From contig OZ245768.1 in assembly GCA_965227835.1 (NCBI GenBank), positions 1,230,001-1,262,000 of the forward strand: a stretch of DNA of 32,000 bases, given 5' to 3'. The position numbers were made by a program, and so were the translations under genes. The notes beneath the pieces were generated by a model. That model was not told where the DNA came from and ran no database searches. It worked only from the letters and a program-made list of their open reading frames with translations. Source of the stretch: Candidatus Saccharimonadota bacterium. Its GTDB lineage: Bacteria > Patescibacteriota > Gracilibacteria > BD1-5 > UBA6164. This document shows, one piece after another, positions 1,008 through 29,008 of the stretch (its first letter is position 1; every line of letters begins with the position of its first letter).

Positions 1008-1680
1008 CAACACATCGGGATAAAAACCCCTATCTTTAGATAGTTAAGACACCGAAGGTGTAAGTGATAGAAATTGAATAAATGAGATGTGTTGTGACAT
1101 AGGGTTTTAAACCCCGTTGCCTTCAGGCCGATTCTAAAGAAAAAAGTGTAAAAAATCAATAGAATAAATAAAATAGTGTTAAAAACTAACACTAGAGAGA
1201 ATGAAATACCAAAAAAGTAGTCATGCGACATATGATGTCAGATACCATATAGTATGGATAACAAAATACAGAAATCCATTCATGACAAAAGAGATACAAG
1301 ATAGATTGGAAAAGATCATAAGATGAATAAGTAAAAAGCTATGAGTAATAATAATAAAGATATGAATGGAAGAAGATCATGTACATATGTATTGTAGGAT
1401 ACCGTTAACTAAACCAATATCTACAATAGTATGACATATAAAGTGAGAAAGTTCTAAGGCAATAAAGAGGTATTTTTACAAAGAAATTAAGAGATGGTAT
1501 TGGAAGACATGAAATATATGGTGAGTATGATATTTTGTATCTAGTGTATGAGAGATAAATTGAGAAATAATATCTAATTATGTGGAACAACAGTGAGAAG
1601 AAGAGAATAAGATTGAAGAGATAGAGCTTTAAATTTCAGTACAAATAAAAGCCCCGTGCCTTCAGGCCGGGGTAGAAGAA
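1008..1680 (+). mobile_element. IS200/IS605-family insertion sequence (tnpA only); ends approximate
   Basis: Y1 transposase flanked by related subterminal hairpins: left ccccgttGCCttcaGGCcg at 1112..1130 and right CCCCGtGCCttcaGGCCGGGG at 1652..1672. The ~0.67 kb size is typical of IS200. Confidence 0.6.
1201..1632 (+). CDS. tnpA: IS200/IS605 family Y1 (HUH) transposase TnpA
   Basis: 143 codons with TGA=Gly: MKYQKSSHATYDVRYHIVWITKYRNP...EEDHVHMYCRIP...GHIKGESSKAIKRYF...GVGYFVSSVGEINGEIISNYVEQQ. Shows the HxH (HUH) motif and the catalytic-Tyr region. Stop is TAA. Confidence 0.85.
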
Positions 1681-1819
1681 AAGCTAAAACTTTTTACTTT
1701 TAAAGTGTTTTTGTCAAATTTGTGAATTTTGAATTAGATGCTAAGATATAAAATTTAATTTTTAAAACTAGGATTGTTAACAAATAAAGCAATAAAAATT
1801 TTTTATTTATAAATGAAGC

Positions 1820-3178
1820 TTAGAAATTATCTTCAACGTACTCTATTAACAATAGATAAAATAATCATATATCTCCTTTTCAAATACCATCTTTTTCTAA
1901 CTTTATATATTTTCAATCAATTTTAAATATAAAGTCTTTATATTTATGTGTAGTGTTATTACTTAATTCAATTTTGTAGTTAAGCATATACAAAAAATAA
2001 TTAAATAGTTTTACATCATAATCATCAATTTTTTCTTTTATAGACTGAGAGCTCTCTAGTACTTTTATAAATCTATTTTTATCGTTTCAAAAGATAGAAA
2101 ATAATATATTTATAGATTTTTTTATAACATACTCTTTAGAGTCATACATGTATATAATTTTTTCTTTTAATTGTTTCATGTCATTATCTTTCCAGCAAAG
2201 TAATTCTCTCAATCCAAGTTTATACTGAGAATTTAACGAGATAGCACTAGATAAAACTATTTGTAAAAATAGGCTTATGTATCAACTTTCTTTTAAGAAT
2301 AATTTTAAACTTTCATCACATCTAAATCTCTCAATTATTTCCTTAATTTTCTCTTTTATAATCTTTTCATTATTGAAAAGAAAAACCTCTGAAGTATAAA
2401 ATTTGTTTATATATCAATTAAAATCTGTATCTTCTCAATATCTATGATGAAATATACTTTTTAAATTATTATAATCTCACACAAATATAATTTTATCAAA
2501 TCAAAACTTGTTTCACCCTAAATTATCAAAGTGTGCTCAAAAAATATTTAATAATCTAAATGTGTGTTCAGGATCAATTCTATCTAGGTCATCAAATATA
2601 AGTATACTTTTTTTATTTCACTTATTTTCCGAAACTTTATTTTTTATTAAGGTACTTATTAAATCTTCTTCATTAATATTTTTATTTTTAATTTCTTTAA
2701 GAATATTTTCATAAATTCATTTTTCTCACTTTTTAATATCTTCTGAAAATTCTTTGAATTTTTGAAGTAAACAGAATGTTTCTCACAAAGATTTTCATAT
2801 TTTTGGTATATAGGAAGCTATATTTCTAATAATATCTACCTTGTTTTCGTTATAAAACATATTAACTAAAGAATAAATATCTATAAGGTTTTCTATTTTT
2901 AAATCTTCTAGCACATTACTATTTTTTTTAAGAACTTCTACTAATATGTCATATTTTATTAAATTTATAATGTCTTCATTATTATTTATTTGATAATTTA
3001 TAGGAAATAAATGATATATATCATAGCTTTCTTTTGGAAGTTTCTTTAAAAAATATGTTTTTCATATTCAAAGCTTTCAAGAAAAAAGAATAGAAAAGTT
3101 ATTTTCTTGCTCTAAATGCTCTATAAATTCTTTTTGGATATTTTCTATAGATATAGTTATTTCTCATATTTTTTCCAT
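1820..3178 (-). CDS. KAP-family-like P-loop NTPase
   Basis: 452 aa with TGA=Gly. Walker A is FSGKLGIGKTYFL; Walker B is SILIFDDLDRIDPEHTFRLLN, matching the DDLDR-x-P signature of KAP NTPases. Stop is TAA. Confidence 0.65.
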
Positions 3179-3259
3179 AAACAAACTGATATTAAAAAAA
3201 TATTAAATTATATATTATTATTTTCATATAGTTAAATTTGCAATTTAGTTTACTATACC

Positions 3260-4804
3260 TTAATCTTTTTCACTTTTTCTAAAACTCAAAGATTCAAGCA
3301 CGTGTTTTTTTTCTATTTTTTCTTTTCATTCCAAATCAGCTATCGTCCTAGATAGTTTTAATATTCTAAAATAAGCTCTAGCTGATAAATCCAGATTATT
3401 AACAGCTTTTTTTAAAATCTCTTCAGTTTCTAAGTCAAGTTTACAAAAATTGTTTATATTTTCACTAGACATCTGTGAATTTGAACTAATTCCTTTGTCT
3501 TTAAATCTCTCTATTTGTATATTTCTAGCTTTTTGGATATTTTGTTTTAATTCCAAAGAAGATACATTTTGGGAATAATCATTTCACACTTTCAGTTTTT
3601 CCGTTTCAATTTTTGGAACTTCTATAAATATGTCTATCCTATCAAGAAGAGGTCAAGAGAGCCTTGATTTATAATTTTCAACCTGCTTTTTAGAACAAAT
3701 ACATTGTTTTCAAGGATCTGTTAAATATCAACAAGGACAAGGATTCATAGCTCAAACTAGAGAAAAATCAGCAGGATAATTATAAGTAGCATTTACTCTA
3801 TTTACTGTTATTTCTCAATCTTCTAAAGGTTGTCTTAAAACCTCCAAAACAGATTTTTCAAATTCCAAAATCTCATCTAAAAACAAAACTCATTTATGAG
3901 CTAGACTTATTTCTCACGGTTTTGCATTTCTTCATCAACCTATTATTGATATATTTGATGCTGTGTGATGGATAGATCTAAACGGTCTTTTGTTTACTAT
4001 AGGTATTTTTGAATTTAAAAGACCAGAGATACTATATATTTTAGATACTTCTATAGACTCTTCTATTGTTAAGTTTGGTAGTATTCCAGCAAAAGATTTT
4101 GCAAGCATAGTTTTTCAGCTTCATGGAGGACCACTCATAATTATGTTATGTCATCCTGCAGCAGCTATTTCTAAAGCTCTTTTTGCATGTTCCTGCCCCA
4201 GGATATATTTAAAATCATATCTACTTTCTAAAATCTTTTTTTCTTCTTCAAAATGTCTTGTAAAATCAAGTTTTTTTTGAGTCTTTAATTCTTTTTCTCA
4301 GTTTAAGACAGATATTAATTCAGATAATGATTCTACGGGAATTATATCTATATCTGGTATTATAGAAGCTTCCAGCGCATTTTTCTTTGGTATAAAAATT
4401 CTTTTAAATCATTTTTCTCTTGCTAATATAGTTGAAGGCAATATTGAATCTATTTCTCTAAGTTTTCAATCCAAAGAAAGCTCTCATAAAAAAATAGAAT
4501 CTTTTGTAAGATCATTTATTATATCTCATCTATTTAATAACACTCAAACAGCTATAGGTAAATCAAAACTTGGTCAGCTCTTTTTTATATTTGCAGGAGC
4601 TAGGTTTACCGTTATTCTGTTTGTTGGCAGTTTATTTCATGAAGATTTGAGAGCAGATCTTAGTCTTTCTTTACTTTCTTGTACACTTTGGTCAGCAAGA
4701 CCCACTATTGAAAAAGAGGGAAGTCAATTATTTATATCTATTTCTACCTCAACTAAATTAGAATTTAAGCCATTTGTAGCTATACTTTTTACTTTTACTA
4801 TCAT
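3260..4804 (-). CDS. comM: Mg-chelatase-like ATPase YifB/ComM
   Basis: 514 aa. Lon-like N-terminal domain, Walker A GPPGSGKT (cct cca tga agc tga aaa act), Walker B GVLFLDE, CPCGY zinc motif, and C-terminal LSARAYFRILKLSRTIADLE. Confidence 0.9.
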
Positions 4805-5091
4805 GTTTTATCGCTTTAATATGTAATGTTTTATTTTGAAGGAGGATTTATTTTTATATACAAAATATATCTATATATTATATCTTTTTGTTTTAAGTCA
4901 AAAGTTTTTTGAAAAATGCTTTTATAGGAACTTGTAGTAAAATTAACTCATGCAGAAAAAATAATCTTTTTTGCTAATTTTCAATAAAGAAATTTTTAGC
5001 TTAAAATAAGTAAAAAAAGTTTATTTGTAAAAATTATCTAAAAAATCTATATTTTGTCATAACAAAGAAGTTTTACCATAGTCTCCTATAA

Positions 5092-7293: not shown

Positions 7294-9003
7294 CTAAAAG
7301 CTAAATTTGAATGAATGTTCTCAGTAACTGAAAAGAAATGAAACCAACATATGTATTATAAAAATAGTCCCTATTATAAGTAATACTAAAAATATATAGT
7401 TTAACCAATTTTTTCTATTTCTAATTAAAGCATATATTCATAATAAAGAAAATATTATTAATGTTATTTGAAAATATATATTAGGAATAAATCAAAATAA
7501 ATAGATTTTTCAGTATGTGTTATAAGCAACAATACTATTCATAGGAAATGTTGGAAAAATTACATACTCTCAAAATAAATCACTTATTCAAGATAAACTA
7601 TCTTTGCCTAATCTTTTTTTATCTGTAATGGCATAATTATAGTACCAAGTCAGTCAAATACATAAAACAAACATTGTATATATATAATATAATATATTTA
7701 TAATATTTCCTCTTATTTTTATTGAAAAATAAGTAAGTAATAAAAATCAAATTATTCATAATGCTAAATATACATAATATGAATAGTCAATTTTAGCAGG
7801 AAAGCCTAATCATAATTCATCAAAACTTTTTCATTCAATTTTTGATACCTCTCTATGACTTATAATTCAATTTTTAGTATATCATCTATTTTTGTCAGCT
7901 AAAATATCATAGGATACATTTGTAACCGAATCATAGTCAAATTTTACATTTAAGCTATTAGTTCAAACATATAAATTTTCTTTATCTGCTCACCATAAAC
8001 TATTTAATGCTTTAAAATCTTTAGTGTTGGCTCATTCTATAATAATATCATTATAAAATACATTATTTTGGTCTTTATAATGCATTTTACTAAGTACCTC
8101 AAATCATTTTGCTGTAACGTTTTCAACTAATTTAATTCATCTATATACAAATTTATCCAATAGTTTTGTTCATCTATATACTTTATCTCATATTGATATA
8201 TATTTAGACTTTTGTCTTTCTCAAATAAATTTAAAATTACTTACTGATATTCCATTAAACTCTCCTCAAGAACAGCTTGAATTTTTACTACATATATAGA
8301 GATTAGATGTTTTTCTCAAGAATCATTCCTTTTCTATTAAAGCACTATTTAATAGACAAAGTACTCATTTATCTGAAAAGAAACCATTTCATAAATCAGA
8401 CATTCAACTATTATTTTTGTCACAAAATCTATAAGCAAACTTTATTTTTTCTTTTCAAAAACAAAATAGGTTACCAATATTATAAAATCATTTTCCCTCA
8501 TATCTAAATCAGTTTCATGAATCATTTATTCAATCTTGAAAGTCATACACACATGTTATATTATTTGATACTTCGTAATCTGATATATTTATCTTTTTTA
8601 TGTTTAAATCAAAATCTCCCCTTTTTAAAATATCTAACTTAAAGCTTTTGTTGTCTACTTGAGATAATAATTTTATTCAAAATGTTAATCTTTCTCATAA
8701 GACTCTATATCCATCTTCTGACTTCATTGATCACTTTCATTCAGGTAGTAGAAAAGTGCCTAAGTGTCTATAAAAATTATTTTCATGTCAATAATATATA
8801 GTTATGGTAGGAGCTAATCATCAATTTAAATAACCATTATTTTTTTTAAAACTATCTGCTTTGATAATAGATGTATCTCATCATCATGTAACTAAATAAG
8901 AATCTCATATTTTGAATTCAACTATTTTATTGCTTGTTGTTGCAAAGGTATTATTTAATGGTATTAAAACCAATAAAAATATAAAAATAAAAATTTTTTT
9001 CAT
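7294..9003 (-). CDS. secreted/membrane protein with DKNYY-like repeats and a C-terminal multi-TM region
   Basis: 569 aa. Signal peptide MKKIFIFIFLLVLIPLNNTFA. Repeats include YKDQNNVFYNDIIIEGANTKDFKAL, ADKENLYVG and LADKNRGYTKNGII. The C-terminal ~150 aa are strongly hydrophobic. Confidence 0.5.
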
Positions 9004-9023
9004 ATCATTTTTATTATAAATAA

Positions 9024-9045
9024 AAGAACCATTTCTTTGGTTCTT
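9024..9045 (-). terminator. hairpin downstream of ftsZ
   Basis: AAGAACCA-tttctt-TGGTTCTT forms an 8-bp stem. On the minus strand it is followed by TTTATTTAT. Confidence 0.4.
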
Positions 9046-9120
9046 CTAATTTTAACATATTTTTATGTTTTTTTAAAATTTTTAATTACAAAACTTACAC
9101 TTTTCTTTAAATAAACTCTT

Positions 9121-11929: not shown

Positions 11930-13117
11930 ATGGTAGTTTTTCTGATAATAATTTTGGTAATGAGCTTGAATTTATTTGTTTTGCATTTGTTTTGAGAGAG
12001 TTTTATCAAAAGTAGCGATAATATAAAATATGCTTATGCTACACTTCTTTTTTTGATTGAATCAATACTTATAGTTTATTTTATATGAAAGTTTTATGAT
12101 ACCCCTATAAAACAATTAAAATATTTTATACAAAAGTTATATACTGGTCAGTTGAAATGAGAAAAAATAGAGGTTTCTAGATCTGTAAATAGAGATTTAA
12201 ATAACATAAGTGATAGTATAGTTGATATACTTAAAAGGCTTAGAAATATAAAAGAAGAATTTATTCAAGGTAAAGCCATAAAATGAGAGGTAGAGTTAGC
12301 AAAAGAGATACAGTGAAGAACATTTTTAAAAAAACTTACAGAAGTTCCTTCTTTGAATGTAATAGCAAATTCTAGACCAGCATGAGAAATAGGTTGAGAT
12401 TCTTATGATATAATAAAGAATTGAGATAATTATTATATATATGTGTGAGATGCTACATGACACTGAGTTTGAGCTTGATTTATAATGATGATGGTAAATG
12501 CTCTTATAGCTTGATTTTCAAATATATATATAAAATGAAGCCAGATAATGGCTTCAGCAAATACTGTTTTAAAACCTAGAGTAAAAGCTAATCTTTTGAT
12601 GTCTGTTTTACTTTTAAGATGGAACGAGGAAGAAAAAAGGTTATTTATGACTGGAGCATGACATGAATATTTAATGGTATATAAGCAATCTAAAAATAAA
12701 TGTTATAACATAAAATCTGGTTGAGTTGCTCTTTGAATGATAAAAGATATTAGTAAACTTTTAAAAGAAAAAGAAATATCTTTTGAACCTGGAGATATTG
12801 CAGTTTTGTATAGCGATTGAATAACAGAGGCTATAAATAAACCTAAAAGAGACGGTTCAGAAAAGATGTTTTGAGAGGATAGGCTTATAAAATCTATAGA
12901 GCAGTCTCCTAATATGGAGGGTAAAAATTATAAAACTGCCAATTCAGTATACAATAATATTACTATAAATTTATCAAAATTTATGTGATATAAACCTGTT
13001 CAATTGGATGATGTTACTTTGTCTGTAATACAGTATAAACCTGAAGATTACATAAAAGAAAAAGATTTTTCAGAGAAAATACCTGATGATTTAGTTACTG
13101 AGTGGAATTGGTCTTAG
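11930..13117 (+). CDS. membrane-anchored SpoIIE/PP2C-family serine phosphatase (RsbU-like)
   Basis: 395 aa. Two N-terminal TM helices plus a linker, then GGDSYD, VGDATGHGVGAG, LYSDGITEA and DDVTLSVIQY. Confidence 0.8.
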
Positions 13118-13167
13118 TAGATATCTTGCTAAAATTGGATTTTAGTTTTAAAAAAACAAAAATAAAT

Positions 13168-13195
13168 TTGACATATATTTTTTATATATTATAAT
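13168..13195 (+). promoter_or_regulatory. near-consensus sigma70-type promoter TTGACA-N16-TATAAT
   Basis: TTGACA at 13168..13173 and TATAAT at 13190..13195. It points rightward into the IS30 left end, about 33 nt away. Confidence 0.45.
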
Positions 13196-13227
13196 CCACA
13201 TAATTCAATTTACCTGAATTAAACCCC

Positions 13228-14381
13228 GAAGTGCAATTTTTTAAATGAACTTAAAGAAGAAAATATAGCATTAAGAAATTTTTTATTTTTGAGATTATAA
13301 AAAATTTTGTTATAATTCCAAATACAACATTAAGATTGTGAAAAGTGTGCTTGATTAGGGGAAATAAATCAAAGTATTTCTCTAGGAGTATTTGCTAATA
13401 TATCGCAAATACTTTTTATTTTTTCATCACTTACATAATCAAATATAGTTCATTTAGGAAAAAATCTCCTGATAATCCTATTTAAATTCTCAATACTTCA
13501 CTTCTGCCAAGAAGAATAAGGCTCACAAAAGTAAGTATCTATTCATATATCATTTAATAAATAATGCTTAGCAAATTCCATTCAATTATCAAAAGTAACA
13601 GATTTAATTCATATATCATCTTTAACTCAAGCTATTAGATTAATTATATTTTCACTTGATTTATCTTTTATTTTAAAAATTTTAGGTAACCTAGTCTTTC
13701 TATCAACCAATGTAAGTATAGCTCATTTAAATCATTTTTTAGAAACAATTAAATCAGCTTCAATATGTCATTTTTCTTCTCTGTTATTTATTGTTTCAGG
13801 TCTATTTTTAATACTAACTCTATTTTTAATTTTCACTCTTTCTGTTTGTTGTTTTTTCTTTCTATAACCTTTATGTTTATATAATAATAGTTCTTTATAT
13901 TTATTTCACATACCAGTTTCTAGCCAAGAATATATACTTGTATGGGAGATATGTTTCTTTTTATCTGTTTGAGTATTATTCCGTTTCTTAGCAATTGTTT
14001 TTGGGGACATTTGTATTTCTGTTATTGATAGTTGTTCTATTATGAAATTTTTCATATTAGTATTCATATTTATCTTCATTGATTGAGTTTTTGTTAACCA
14101 TCGTCTTTGATATGATTTGATTTCTGCTTCTAGTGCTAAATATACTTTTTTATTGTTTCATCGTTTTTTTACTGAATTTCTGTATATCTCTCTGCTTATT
14201 GTTGATTCTGATCTTTTTAGTATTGATGCTATATCTTTTTTCTTTAATCATTTATTTAAATGAAATTCAATACTTTCTCTCTCTTGGAATATTAATTGTC
14301 AGTACATATCTTATTATATTAGAAAATAATGTTATTACCCTACGGGGAATACTATATTTTCTTCTCTTTTAATTGCACTTC
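13228..14381 (-). mobile_element. IS30-family insertion sequence (~1.15 kb)
   Basis: 11-bp terminal inverted repeat: GAAGTGCAATT at 13228..13238 and AATTGCACTTC at 14371..14381. Both ends also share the subterminal 14-mer AGAAGAAAATATAG. It encloses a single transposase ORF. Confidence 0.75.
13330..14307 (-). CDS. IS30 family DDE transposase
   Basis: 325 aa with TGA=Gly. HTH region is ERESIEFHLNKGLKKKDIASILKRSESTISREIYRN. DDE region includes GHIEADLI, FDNGMEFA and EPYSSWQKGSIENLNRIIRRFFPKG. TGG=W and TGA=G occur side by side in the conserved motif. Confidence 0.88.
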
Positions 14382-14461
14382 ATTTCTTACTTTGGGTTAC
14401 TGTAATTTAAATTGAAGAGGCCCTTAACATTTTAACAACACTACATTAGAGAGGTAAAATT

Positions 14462-15955
14462 ATGGTTATGTTGTGGATTCTTTTAGGGATAATTTGTGTT
14501 ATAGGTGTTGTGTATATCTCTATACGCAAAACTAAACATGAAAATGAAAACAAACGTTTGGGTGAGAACAGCCAATTTCCTATTCCCCCAAGAGTACGTC
14601 ATGTTCTTATAGGACTTGCTATGCTTTTTATGGGATTGGGAGCATTTAACGCAAACTTCTTTTATGCTGAACCTGGTTACATTTACCATGTTCGTACAAT
14701 AATTGGACAAGAGCGTGTGATTGATTCTGTTGGTTATAACTACTATTTTCTTGGTCGTATCAATCAATGGAAAAAGGCCATGACTGTTCAAGCTGTTTCT
14801 TTTAGTGATACAAGTGGAGATGAATCTCCTGATAGTGTAAATGCAGAAGGTGAAGGGGGAGCCCAAACTTCGGCTTCATTACCTCCTCTTTCCGTAGTTA
14901 TGCTAGATCAGGTTGACTCTAAAATATCAGCTACTACTCGTTTCCGTATTCCTAGTGATAGGGAGACTTTCCTTAGGATGGCTCATGAGTATCGCACACC
15001 TGAAAACTTACTTCGCACAGCACTGATTCCTGCTTTTAAGGAAACTTTGCAAGCTACTGGTTCTTTAATGGCTGCCGAAGAGTATTACAGTGGTCGTCGT
15101 ACTGAGTTTAATGCTGAGTTTGAGAATCAGATGCAAAATGGTATTTATCTTGTATCTCGACATCAAATAACTGTTGATGATCCCACAGCCCAAGCAAAGG
15201 CTTCTGCCGCAGCTAATCTAGGTGATGATCAAACTAACTTTGGTGAGGCAACAAAAGTTAGATGGGTTGTCAAAAAAAAGATGAGAGAAGATGGTACTTA
15301 TGAGCGTAAATCTCAAAAGTTCACTGAATATGGTATTGCTGTTATTGAAGCTCGTGTTACAGATTTGATTCCTAATTCCAAATTTGTAGAACGTATGCAG
15401 CTTAAACAACAAGCTGCTGCTGATCGTGCTATAGCTCAAGAGAAACGTGTTCAAGAAGAAGAGCAACGTTTGTTAGCAATTGCCAAAGGTGAACGCGAGG
15501 TTGCTGAAGAGCAAGCTGCTGCTAAGAAAGTTCAAATCAAACAGACTACTGAAGCTGAAACTGATAAAAGTCTTGCTCTAATTGCGGCCTCTAAGCAGTT
15601 AGAACAAGCTGAAATTGACAAGCAAACAGCTCAAATTCAGAAAGAAAAAGCTGATATTGATGCTGCGAGAATCAAGGTTTTAGCCGATGCTGATAAATAT
15701 GAGCGTGAAGCTCGTATTGCTGGTGATAATGCATTACAACAAAAATTGGATGCAGAAATTTCTATTCAACAAGTCTGGGCAGATGCTTATTCAAAAAGGC
15801 AGGTTCCAACCTATGTTTTTGGAAATGATTCTGGTCAGGGAGGAGCTCCTGTTGGTTCAGACTCGGAAGTTAAAAACTTTATGCAGCTCATGACTATAGA
15901 TGCTGCAACACGTTTGAACTACAATCGAGGTCTTGAATTTAACACTAGCAAATGA
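14462..15955 (+). CDS. SPFH/Band-7 (prohibitin/flotillin-like) membrane protein; apparently foreign and written in standard code
   Basis: 497 codons open under table 11. Two N-terminal TM helices, an SPFH-like core (VVMLDQVDSKISATTRFRIP...LLRTALIPAFKETLQATGSLMAAEEYYSGRRTEF...YGIAVIEARVTDLIP) and an Ala/Glu/Lys/Gln coiled coil. SD-like GAGAGG lies 7 nt upstream. No in-frame TGA. Ends in TGA followed by a terminator. Confidence 0.75.
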   Translation: MVMLWILLGIICVIGVVYISIRKTKHENENKRLGENSQFPIPPRVRHVLIGLAMLFMGLGAFNANFFYAEPGYIYHVRTIIGQERVIDSVGYNYYFLGRINQWKKAMTVQAVSFSDTSGDESPDSVNAEGEGGAQTSASLPPLSVVMLDQVDSKISATTRFRIPSDRETFLRMAHEYRTPENLLRTALIPAFKETLQATGSLMAAEEYYSGRRTEFNAEFENQMQNGIYLVSRHQITVDDPTAQAKASAAANLGDDQTNFGEATKVRWVVKKKMREDGTYERKSQKFTEYGIAVIEARVTDLIPNSKFVERMQLKQQAAADRAIAQEKRVQEEEQRLLAIAKGEREVAEEQAAAKKVQIKQTTEAETDKSLALIAASKQLEQAEIDKQTAQIQKEKADIDAARIKVLADADKYEREARIAGDNALQQKLDAEISIQQVWADAYSKRQVPTYVFGNDSGQGGAPVGSDSEVKNFMQLMTIDAATRLNYNRGLEFNTSK

Positions 15956-15977
15956 TTCAGAGTAAAATCTGAAGTGA

Positions 15978-16005
15978 GAGCCCCCATATGGGGGCTCTTT
16001 TTTTT
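15978..16005 (+). terminator. rho-independent terminator of the SPFH gene
   Basis: GAGCCCCC-atat-GGGGGCTC at 15978..15997, followed by eight T at 15998..16005. It begins 23 nt after the TGA. Confidence 0.85.
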
Positions 16006-16021
16006 ACCTTTAAATATATTT

Positions 16022-16777
16022 TTAGCTTTTTATACCTCTTCCTCTCTTAATCAAAAACAAAACTAATAAATACAAAGAAACGAGAAAAAATAATAATATT
16101 GATAAAGAAAATCAAACATCCACATCACTTATTCATATAAAAGAATATCTAAGTCAATTTATCATATAAAGAATAGGGTTAAATTTACTTACTTCTTGCC
16201 AAAAAGGAGATAACACAGATATAGAATAAAAAACTCAGCCTAAATATATCAAGGGGGTCATAATAAAACTAGGTATTATATTCACGTCATCAAAATTATT
16301 TGCAAAAATTCAGTTCAAAAGGCCTGCCAAAGAGAAAACTGCCGAAGTCAAAAATATAAAGAAAAACATATAAAGATAACTATAAACTTCTATATCTACT
16401 ATGAAAGATGAAAAAATAAAAACCAAAACTCAAACCATTATCCCTCTAAACATTCAAGCAATACAAAATCATATTATAATCTTGTTATAAGACATAGGAG
16501 AAACCAAAATCTCTTCCAAATTTCTAAACATTTTTCAAGCAAGAAAATTAAACGAAGTAAGAGAATAACTTCACATAATTATAGACATCATCAAAAGACC
16601 AGGAAATATAAAACTCATATAACTAACTCAACCTCATATATTTATCTGAGTTCAAAGAAATTTTCAAAATATTAAAATATATAAAATAGCTGTAATTACA
16701 GGTGGAAGCAAGGTTTGTTTCCAAATTTTCAAAAACCCTTTAGATAGTTTTAAAACAAGAGTAAAAAGATCTGTCAT
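16022..16777 (-). CDS. ABC-2 type transporter permease
   Basis: 251 aa with about 6 hydrophobic helices. Directly downstream of the ATPase gene (3-nt gap) on the same strand. Confidence 0.7.
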
Positions 16778-19309: not shown

Positions 19310-19370
19310 GGTTTTTTTGTTAAAAAATATTTTTAAGGTTTTTTATAAACAATATTTTATAATCTTTTTT

Positions 19371-20495
<1,125 letters not shown>

Positions 20496-20525
20496 AATAA
20501 CAAAATTAGTATTAATTTTGTTATT
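20496..20525. repeat. perfect 13-bp inverted repeat abutting the ATPase start codon
   Basis: AATAACAAAATTA (20496..20508), loop gtat, then TAATTTTGTTATT (20513..20525). Confidence 0.6.
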
Positions 20526-20622
20526 ATGATATTATTTTTTTATAAAAAATGCAACTTTATTTTCAATTTATATTATATAAATATAAATTGTCTTCCTTTT
20601 TCAATAATCTTTTATCTTTTCA

Positions 20623-21830: not shown

Positions 21831-21969
21831 TTTTTAGGGGTGGTTATTTTAATAGAATTTAAGAAAAAAGTTTGACTTTTTTAAGTTTTAATTAGAATAA
21901 ATTTTGCTTAGTGAAATTGTTTTACTAGGCAAAAACATTTCCACAACTCAAACAATTTGGAGGAATAAT

Positions 21970-22212
21970 ATGAAAAGTGTGTATTATCAGCTCATAGGAG
22001 TAAAAAGCGAAGAGGCTCAAGCCCTCGTTGATATAACTACAGATGAGCTTTCATCACCTGGTGCTTTAATAATAATTAGCAAAGGTAATGTATATACAAA
22101 CTGCCCATATATATCTAAAACACATAGTGAATCCAGACCTCATGTTACTTCTGTTAAGGAAATAAAAGGGGATATATCTGAATTGACTAAGTCTGAGATA
22201 AAAGGAGGATAA
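21970..22212 (+). CDS. hypothetical 80-aa protein; TGA-free and SD-led
   Basis: GGAGG lies 6 nt upstream of the ATG. All 6 Gly are GGN codons. Sequence MKSVYYQLIGVKSEEAQALVDITTDELSSPGALIIISKGNVYTNCPYISK... belongs to no family I recognise. Stop is TAA. Confidence 0.5.
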   Translation: MKSVYYQLIGVKSEEAQALVDITTDELSSPGALIIISKGNVYTNCPYISKTHSESRPHVTSVKEIKGDISELTKSEIKGG

Positions 22213-28699: not shown

Positions 28700-29008
28700 C
28701 TACAATCCAAAATTTGGATCATTAAAGTGTTTCCAAAACTCCAATACTTCATCATCTGATAAGGGTAAACAAAGTCTTGGAATTGAATTTTTGTCATGCA
28801 CAATCTTTCTTGAATAACAAAAGTCTATTTTTATTTCAATAGTATAACCACCATCATTTAAATAAGATTTTATCAAACCTTTCACTGATGAGTAAAGATT
28901 ATTAATTTCAGAAACTATTTTAATAGGTCCTTTATTAGTTTGTATACAGTAACGATTTGTTATCTCATCTTCTGTAATAAAGACTTTGCAAACGCTAATA
29001 TTAAGCAT
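28700..29008 (-). CDS. hypothetical 102-aa protein; TGA-free and SD-led
   Basis: AGGAGG lies 5 nt upstream of the ATG. All Gly are GGN codons. Sequence MLNISVCKVFITEDEITNRYCIQTNKGPIKIV...LPLSDDEVLEFWKHFNDPNFGL belongs to no family I recognise. Stop is TAG. Confidence 0.55.
   Translation of the reverse strand: MLNISVCKVFITEDEITNRYCIQTNKGPIKIVSEINNLYSSVKGLIKSYLNDGGYTIEIKIDFCYSRKIVHDKNSIPRLCLPLSDDEVLEFWKHFNDPNFGL

Follow-up and report, generated by a model that had tools for sequence, protein, structure and literature searches.

A departure from the standard genetic code is often regarded as a firewall against viruses and gene flow, and natural transfers across codes that were caught before adaptation are, to our knowledge, rare. 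Phage morons are autonomous promoter-gene-terminator units, and the classical ones lie inside prophage genomes. SPFH proteins of the phage family phrog_11908, listed in PHROGs as 'unknown function', include a hypothetical protein of Alishewanella phage vB_AspM_Slickus01 and a 'membrane protease subunit stomatin/prohibitin' of Sinorhizobium phage phiN3, and are encoded by single genes in genomes of 141-207 kb. Standard-code-compatible phages have been reported to be targeted by clustered regularly interspaced short palindromic repeats (CRISPR) spacers of Gracilibacteria and Absconditabacteria; the TGA stops of such phages were backed by nearby alternative stops, and every integrated prophage used an alternative code (Liu et al., mBio 2023, PMC10746230). 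Here, an SPFH/Band-7 gene was analyzed in a stretch of 32,000 nucleotides (nt; hereinafter referred to as the window) of Candidatus Saccharimonadota bacterium, placed within Gracilibacteria by GTDB (assembly GCA_965227835.1, contig OZ245768.1, positions 1,230,001 to 1,262,000 of the forward strand). The gene likely belongs to a self-contained phage-type transcription unit that was recently inserted into a Gracilibacteria chromosome using code 25. An earlier annotation made from the sequence alone (hereinafter the first-pass annotation) had singled out this gene as a recent acquisition from a standard-code bacterium or phage. The features of the gene are as follows (window coordinates, strand, description).

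14462-15955, + strand: SPFH/Band-7 gene, 497 codons (standard code), terminated by TGA (identified by Pfam Band_7, phrog_11908, AlphaFold/Foldseek and codon statistics)
14400-14461, + strand: SPFH leader, with the Shine-Dalgarno motif GAGAGG at 14449-14454 and a 7-nt spacer
15976-16007, + strand: intrinsic terminator, GAGAGCCCCC-ATAT-GGGGGCTCTT followed by T8, the strongest in the window, located 5' of the first host-readable stop
15953-16066, + strand: predicted read-through segment, TGA as Gly plus 36 codons to TAA, overlapping the 3' end of the convergent permease gene

The protein matched phrog_11908 along its entire length (residues 45-489 aligned to positions 7-427 of the 430-position profile; E = 2.2e-78), and alignments with the phage homologs, at 35-41% identity, covered 82-91% of the length. 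In Slickus01, a transfer RNA (tRNA) array and a gene for tRNA nucleotidyltransferase were located near the SPFH gene, an arrangement shared with the metagenomic phage relatives described below. In contrast to these phage genes, the gene in the window is an isolated one, in the chromosome of a bacterium with a different genetic code. The unit resembles a moron in being a single gene with its own promoter-like element and a strong terminator, and homologous phage loci had the same layout, but no other phage gene accompanies it, and it is located between two bacterial genes rather than in a prophage. As with the phages targeted by CRISPR spacers, standard-coded phage DNA with genes lacking internal TGA would have entered code-25 cells. 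The backup stop of the gene, however, is 37 codons away and beyond the terminator, and the locus adds a standard-coded, phage-derived gene in a chromosome, whereas the integrated phage DNA reported earlier for this lineage was in the alternative code (PMC10746230).

TGA was found at invariant glycines of several proteins encoded in the window, namely in the tubulin signature of FtsZ (GLggGTgTg; GGGTGTG motif), Walker A motifs of the form GxxGxGKT (GHNgAgKT and GPPgSgKT), and the ABC signature LSGGQ. Because TGA occupies these positions, the window is in code 25, TGA is read as Gly, and a reading as Trp is excluded. The window is AT-rich, with a guanine-plus-cytosine (G+C) content of approximately 24%, and in-frame TGA was abundant in its genes. 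A homolog search with the SpoIIE protein encoded beside the SPFH gene returned proteins carrying the name Candidatus Gracilibacteria. Among the Gly codons of 27 host open reading frames (ORFs), 389 of 558 (70%) were TGA, in agreement with the hand tally of the first-pass annotation, in which neighboring genes used mostly TGA for Gly. Arg was encoded by AGA in 81% of cases and by CGT in approximately 1%, and the mean G+C contents at the three codon positions (GC1/GC2/GC3) were 0.32/0.28/0.155 (GC3 ±0.033).

The SPFH gene differed from these genes in most of the ways that the first-pass annotation had named. Its Gly codons, estimated before at approximately 29, were 29 in number and all GGN within 14462-15955 (P ~3e-16 at the host TGA frequency). 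Its higher G+C content was also reproduced (0.395 for the ORF; 0.40-0.42 in 500-nt windows versus approximately 0.24 in the flanks; GC1/GC2/GC3 of 0.56/0.39/0.24, with GC3 0.237). The reported frequent use of GCT, CGT, and GGT held as well, with CGT (58%) and CGC (13%) together making up 71% of Arg codons and with GCT, GGT, and GTT enriched; the sliding-window G+C and codon-usage analysis that had been recommended thus bore out the foreign composition of the ORF. The exception was the claim that the ORF contains no in-frame TGA: the internal codons are TGA-free, but the codon closing the 497-codon ORF (15953-15955) is itself TGA. When synonymous codons were compared with host and phage models, SPFH was the only one of 27 genes tested that fitted the phage models better (-0.25 bit per codon, versus +0.14 to approximately +0.7 with a mean of +0.46 for the 26 host genes). 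Its bias toward T-ending codons with CGT for Arg was best fitted by the AT-rich phage contig L005 (36% G+C; SPFH GC3 0.29), the contig closest in composition to the gene.

Expression signals were equally unlike those of the host. The Shine-Dalgarno-like GAGAGG, noted previously at 7 nt 5' of the ATG, was found there, and SPFH was alone among 28 genes in having such a motif; GGAG, GAGG, or AGGA was absent from the 22 nt before the start codon in all 27 host genes. Host leaders across the whole window were almost pure A/T. The G+C-rich intrinsic terminator was likewise found as described, with a hairpin at 15976-15999 (10-bp stem, 7 G-C pairs) followed by T8. For 15950-16015, which folds into this hairpin and a small upstream one, the free energy was -26.4 kcal/mol (z = -4.9). 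The only other intergenic terminator-like site of the window was a much weaker two-way hairpin at 9021-9048 (11 pairs, 3 G-C), located between the FtsZ gene and the convergent-side gene at 7294-9003.

The surroundings of the gene were compared with those in related genomes, for which the following features are needed.

11930-13117, + strand: SpoIIE/PP2C phosphatase gene, host flank, with 21 TGA-Gly codons and homologs named Candidatus Gracilibacteria
16022-16777, - strand: ABC-2 permease gene, host flank, convergent with SPFH, with 14 TGA-Gly codons; syntenic in the relatives L019 and L007
13155-13212, + strand: left arm of the cassette, absent from L019 and split from the rest by an insertion sequence (IS) of the IS30 family
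16008-16018, + strand: right edge of the insert; homology to L019 begins again at 16019, 3 nt ahead of the permease stop

The search with the SpoIIE protein identified a 30-kb contig in ENA (L019) that was 96-97% identical to the window at the DNA level over approximately 15 kb. In this relative, the SpoIIE and convergent permease genes were 60 bp apart with a small hairpin between them, and neither IS30 nor the SPFH gene was present. Collinearity ended at 13154 and resumed at 16019, so that 2,864 bp of the window (13155-16018) corresponded to 20 bp in L019, where the hairpin was intact in place of the island and no deletion scar was observed. The locus is therefore polymorphic between genomes that are approximately 96-97% identical. 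The island delimited by the first-pass annotation was real but larger than proposed, since the segment missing from L019 is 13155-16018, with IS30 inside. The suggested examination of the locus in related code-25 genomes returned the empty site in L019, without any TGA-bearing SPFH ortholog there. In the more distant code-25 relative L007 (50-78% protein identity), genes to the right of the permease were syntenic, and no SPFH gene was found within 10 kb of the permease. A scan for the permease in genome contigs gave only distant relatives (L007 with 71%, a standard-code Peribacteria genome, and two others), and a scan of metagenome contigs gave three weak loci.

The homolog search that had been recommended to find the donor clade returned phage-borne copies as the best matches, with 67-72% identity (P0002, P0003, P0012, P0015, and P0031). 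The contigs of these five homologs contained many small co-directional genes, with the order cREC_REC, CCA-adding enzyme, and SPFH. Arrays of 7-15 tRNA genes were found in three of the four such contigs scanned, and members of the group variously carried genes for T4-type RNA ligase, DsrC, superoxide dismutase, and PstS-like proteins. One homolog contig was an IMG/VR viral genome of 75.7 kb, relatives were present in eight IMG/VR contigs, and P0029, from the next larger clade, was likewise encoded in a phage-like contig. The homolog contigs are ordinary standard-code phages, because 20-34% of their genes end on TGA; in this free use of TGA stops, the relatives of the gene differ from the phages with backed-up stops described above. 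In L001, L003, and L005, arrays of 7-15 tRNA genes were located beside the CCA-adding enzyme gene, and individual contigs contained genes for DsrC, superoxide dismutase, PstS-like, and GGDEF/EAL proteins. Judging from their gene content, these three contigs seem to represent a lineage of large aquatic phages, whose closest cultured relative by SPFH identity is Slickus01 (41%). Cultured large phages of Alishewanella, Sinorhizobium, and Pseudomonas encoded homologs with 34-41% identity, and phages of Vibrio and Aeromonas encoded weaker ones (24-25%).

In a tree of 121 sequences and 448 columns, the window protein was placed inside a 21-member clade with a bootstrap value of 98/100, and the enclosing 26-member clade was recovered with 94/100. 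All six clade surroundings examined, five in the 21-member clade and one in the wider clade, were phage contigs, and the named Gammaproteobacterial homologs were placed outside the phage clade. Of the two kinds of donor that the first-pass annotation had considered, the phage lineage was thus supported by the clade and its contigs, and a prey or host bacterium as the source was not, given the position of the Gammaproteobacterial homologs. On this phylogenetic evidence, the source lineage is a phage one rather than a prey bacterium. The protein kept 140 of the 141 columns conserved in at least 95% of the family, with no sign of decay, and no synonymous GGA-to-TGA change was found in the gene, both of which fit a very recent arrival; the intact ORF is accordingly taken to reflect recency, not demonstrated use. 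With a composition and codon usage unlike the host, an empty site in a relative, and nesting in a foreign clade, the locus has the features of a horizontally acquired genomic islet. Recent acquisition from a standard-code source, as proposed initially, was upheld by the empty site, the phage-like codon usage, and the conserved positions kept.

The direct donor could instead have been a bacterium with the standard code, such as a gammaproteobacterium serving as host or prey, whose DNA was taken up from the partner cell and integrated; we consider this unlikely, although it survives better than the other alternatives. Chromosomal homologs with 55-62% identity are present in the marine Gammaproteobacteria Oceanobacter, Thalassolituus, Aliikangiella, and Parendozoicomonas, and the Oceanobacter copy is located among housekeeping genes. 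In its short N-terminal linker, the window protein resembles P0019, P0020, and P0023, which are encoded on long contigs (7.2 Mb for P0019 and 0.5 Mb for P0020, the latter with a bacterial neighborhood), and the presence of a ComM-type gene at 3260-4804 of the window would fit with DNA uptake. However, identity to the phage copies (67-72%) exceeded that to the bacterial copies, the protein was nested in the phage clade, and P0005, a member of that clade, had the same short linker. Further, the promoter-Shine-Dalgarno-gene-terminator layout matched phage loci, and the codon bias was best fitted by a phage contig.

The internal structure of the insert involves two further features.

13168-13195, + strand: putative promoter with sigma-70 consensus, TTGACA-16-TATAAT (12/12 match); with the IS removed, it would give a leader of approximately 72 nt to the SPFH ATG
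13213-14396, - strand: IS30-family element of 1184 bp, with imperfect 26-bp inverted repeats at 13213-13238 and 14371-14396 (18/26)

The IS30 transposase gene (13330-14307) encoded Pfam HTH_38 and rve domains, and 14 of its 16 Gly codons were TGA; together with the ABC-2 permease gene and its 14 TGA-Gly codons on the right, it matched the earlier description of both flanks of the SPFH gene as host-coded. The element was bracketed by a 3-bp target duplication (TTA at 13210-13212 and 14397-14399). Its right end was confirmed by a 183-bp remnant in L019, which was 98.9% identical to 14214-14396 of the window and ended exactly at 14396. Because a host-coded IS with a TTA duplication lies inside a foreign cassette, it transposed into DNA already present in the cell; on this evidence, IS30 is the second insertion, inside the cassette and between the putative promoter and the ORF. 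Removal of the IS and one TTA joins 13155-13212 to 14400-16018 and restores a cassette of 1,677 bp. The remnant in L019 belongs to a segment (15940-16734 of L019, corresponding to 21860/21865 of the window) that also contains a host-coded DUF3750 gene, and the window has neither. Judged by this difference, IS30 is active or recently active in the lineage.

The 12/12 promoter match was the sole one in the 32-kb window, compared with a mean of 0.16 in shuffled windows. A promoter-like element with an 11/12 match (TTGACT-17-TATAAT) was located at -82 of the SPFH ATG in the phage relative L005, and phage homologs had comparable G+C-rich hairpins 15-45 nt 3' of their stop codons. The moron-like layout thus comprises a clear terminator and a promoter that is a 12/12 sequence match only, correctly placed once the IS is removed. 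Another candidate promoter at 14432-14460 was rejected, as transcription would start after the ATG. The insert consisted of SPFH and IS30 only, with no integrase, structural, or packaging genes, and a prophage remnant was rejected for the absence of any other phage gene. No flanking direct repeats or attachment repeats were seen beyond the IS duplication. IS30 as the vehicle, or as part of a composite transposon carrying a passenger, was also rejected, since a single IS30 copy was present and the TTA duplication brackets the IS alone.

From these observations, the following history is proposed. A phage-type unit of approximately 1.68 kb, comprising promoter, Shine-Dalgarno leader, the 497-codon SPFH gene, and G+C-rich terminator, would have been inserted very recently into the short intergenic region that separates the SpoIIE gene from the convergent ABC-2 permease gene. 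The gene would have come from a lineage of large, tRNA-rich, standard-code, myovirus-like phages, either by injection from a standard-code-compatible phage or by uptake of DNA from a phage-infected neighbor. Later, a resident host-coded IS30 would have transposed into the leader of the cassette, so that the promoter is now 1.2 kb from the ORF. Translation would run 37 codons past the TGA and cross the terminator hairpin before reaching a TAA.

An assembly chimera or contamination would account for the sharp jump in composition, for the repeat (the IS) that adjoins the gene, and for the restriction of the island to one assembly (P0001, the gene product, forms a singleton cluster, and L019 lacks the island). 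This explanation is very improbable: an assembler cannot create a host-coded IS30 with a TTA duplication inside foreign DNA, the outer junctions are in unique sequence within a few bases of the end of L019 homology, the foreign piece is exactly one promoter-to-terminator unit between two convergent genes, and the contig of the window is 1.49 Mb long. That the gene is native or long resident in Gracilibacteria and was lost from L019, its composition stemming from an Ala/Glu-rich coiled coil or high expression, is scarcely credible. In favor of this reading, the GC1 of 0.56 partly reflects amino-acid content (57 Ala and 41 Glu residues) and the ORF is intact. Against it, the synonymous choices of the gene are unlike those of the host (CGT rather than AGA for Arg; no TGA for Gly), none of the top 120 homologs had a code-25 signature (Trp at conserved Gly columns), the site in L019 contains a hairpin that is intact and no deletion scar, and the host lacks Shine-Dalgarno sites.

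Several points weigh against the recent insertion of a phage-type unit and its proposed details. L007 and L028 were rearranged at the SpoIIE/permease junction, with different neighborhoods, and an outgroup did not polarize the difference; the term insertion is drawn from composition and phylogeny, not from an outgroup. The tree was constructed by neighbor-joining, not by maximum likelihood. No potential donor more similar than approximately 71% in amino-acid sequence was found, so the direct donor has not been sampled; it could be a bacterium or prophage with a phage-clade copy. A chance 12/12 promoter occurred in approximately 15% of shuffled windows, and an accidental 3-bp duplication has a probability of approximately 3%. 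In addition, all nine homologs whose stop codons were checked ended on TAA or TAG, and the terminal TGA may post-date the donor.

Under code 25, the SPFH frame stays open for 37 codons past 15953-15955 to the TAA at 16064-16066, giving 534 amino acids. The public gene call of the same sequence (P0001) was also 534 amino acids long, with the TGA translated as Trp. The 497-codon reading ends with ...EFNTSK. The predicted added peptide, GFRVKSEVRAPIWGLFFLPLNIFLAFYTSSSLNQKQN, has a hydrophobic stretch (Kyte-Doolittle), and the peptides GFR, SEVR, and APIWGLFFLPLNIFLAFYTSSSLNQK would arise only from read-through. The host should append the 37 residues by reading TGA as Gly, because its code is shown by TGA at invariant Gly. 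The TAA is located approximately 57 nt past the T-run of the terminator, and transcripts ended by the terminator would have no host-readable stop, because this first TAA lies beyond it. In bacteria, non-stop transcripts are normally handled by ribosome rescue and their product is degraded. The gene is most likely a poorly expressed passenger, presumably of no benefit to the host, rather than an adapted host gene, because IS30 has placed the putative promoter 1.2 kb away from the ORF, TGA is read as Gly, and the stop is beyond the terminator.

The first-pass annotation had suggested that being TGA-free lets the gene cross the code barrier. This was not sustained: internal TGA is absent, but the terminal TGA adds 37 residues, with the next stop past the terminator. 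As the locus suggests, an internally TGA-free coding region passes the barrier, whereas a TGA stop fails, and with it the coupling of the ends of translation and transcription. This failure at the terminal TGA is the most instructive detail of the locus. Since the locus is polymorphic among close relatives, the states before and after are both available, and the donor lineage, large standard-code phages, can be named. The gene family is ordinary and the process, insertion of a foreign gene, is known; the case offers a clear-cut instance from nature, not a new type of system, and no general rule is proved by one locus. It is doubtful that the read-through tail (PIWGLFFLPLNIFLAFY, with a hydrophobic C-terminal) makes an altered phage protein that is used by the Gracilibacterium. 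If so, the tailed SPFH protein might be used, for example, against related phages or for membrane stabilization during host attachment, and the locus would be a natural case in which a change of code gives rise to a novel form of a protein as its gene is transferred.

The Pfam search that had been recommended for the protein gave a match to Band_7/SPFH (PF01145) at residues 140-333 (46.6 bits against a cut-off of 23.6; 5e-12), and no match to the Pfam flotillin model was obtained in the scan of the window protein. An AlphaFold2 monomer model (mean predicted local distance difference test [pLDDT] score of 76) contained two N-terminal helices (2-33 and 43-65), the SPFH domain, a 140-residue helix (306-445), and a short C-terminal helix. 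Residues 1-22 and 45-67 formed hydrophobic segments (Kyte-Doolittle), which are those of an N-terminal membrane anchor. Foldseek matched the model to HflK/C, prohibitin, erlin, stomatin, flotillin, QmcA, and vault, with a probability of 1.0 for 7vhq, 8rrh, 9o9z, 9cz2, 9z7u, and 9bq2; a PDB search by sequence gave no match, and structures were found by fold comparison only. HflK/HflC, prohibitin, stomatin, erlin, flotillin, and QmcA share with the protein the Band_7 domain and the predicted architecture of membrane anchor, SPFH domain, very long helix, and C-terminal helix; in contrast, sequence identity was 10-13%, and the window protein has two N-terminal hydrophobic helices and is encoded by a single gene. 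No partner gene of HflC, NfeD, or FtsH type adjoined the SPFH gene, whose neighbors are IS30 and the ABC permease, and the phage relatives likewise had a single SPFH copy, with no tandem pair of HflK/HflC type encountered. PADLOC defense models gave no family at E <= 0.1, an NCBIfam search gave noise only, and no experimental work on the function of phage SPFH proteins was found in a literature search. According to the model, the biochemical role is most likely that of a membrane-anchored oligomeric scaffold, and, by the likeness of its subunits to those of HflK/C, prohibitin, and stomatin, the protein may assemble into a similar ring or cage.

The remainder of the window contained several minor features. 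No RNA family was found in an Rfam scan of the window, and no tRNA genes were found in it. A second strain-specific insertion (1008-3255), host-coded and absent from L019, contained an IS200-type transposase gene (1201-1632; 11 of 11 Gly codons TGA) and a KAP-family P-loop NTPase gene (1820-3184). An AAA_14/DUF4143 ATPase gene (19371-20495, within 19349-20612) was missing from both L019 and L007, with adjacent genes syntenic, and 163 bp of intergenic sequence (4924-5086) was absent from L019. In TGA-rich surroundings, a 102-codon ORF on the - strand (28700-29008) had no TGA, five GGN codons, and no Pfam match. Another 102-codon ORF, on the + strand (21904-22212; 34% G+C), had no TGA, seven GGN codons, and no Rfam match, and was 94.5% conserved in L019; a hairpin at 22008-22027 on the opposite strand was located within it, and the segment may represent a small protein gene or a structured RNA.

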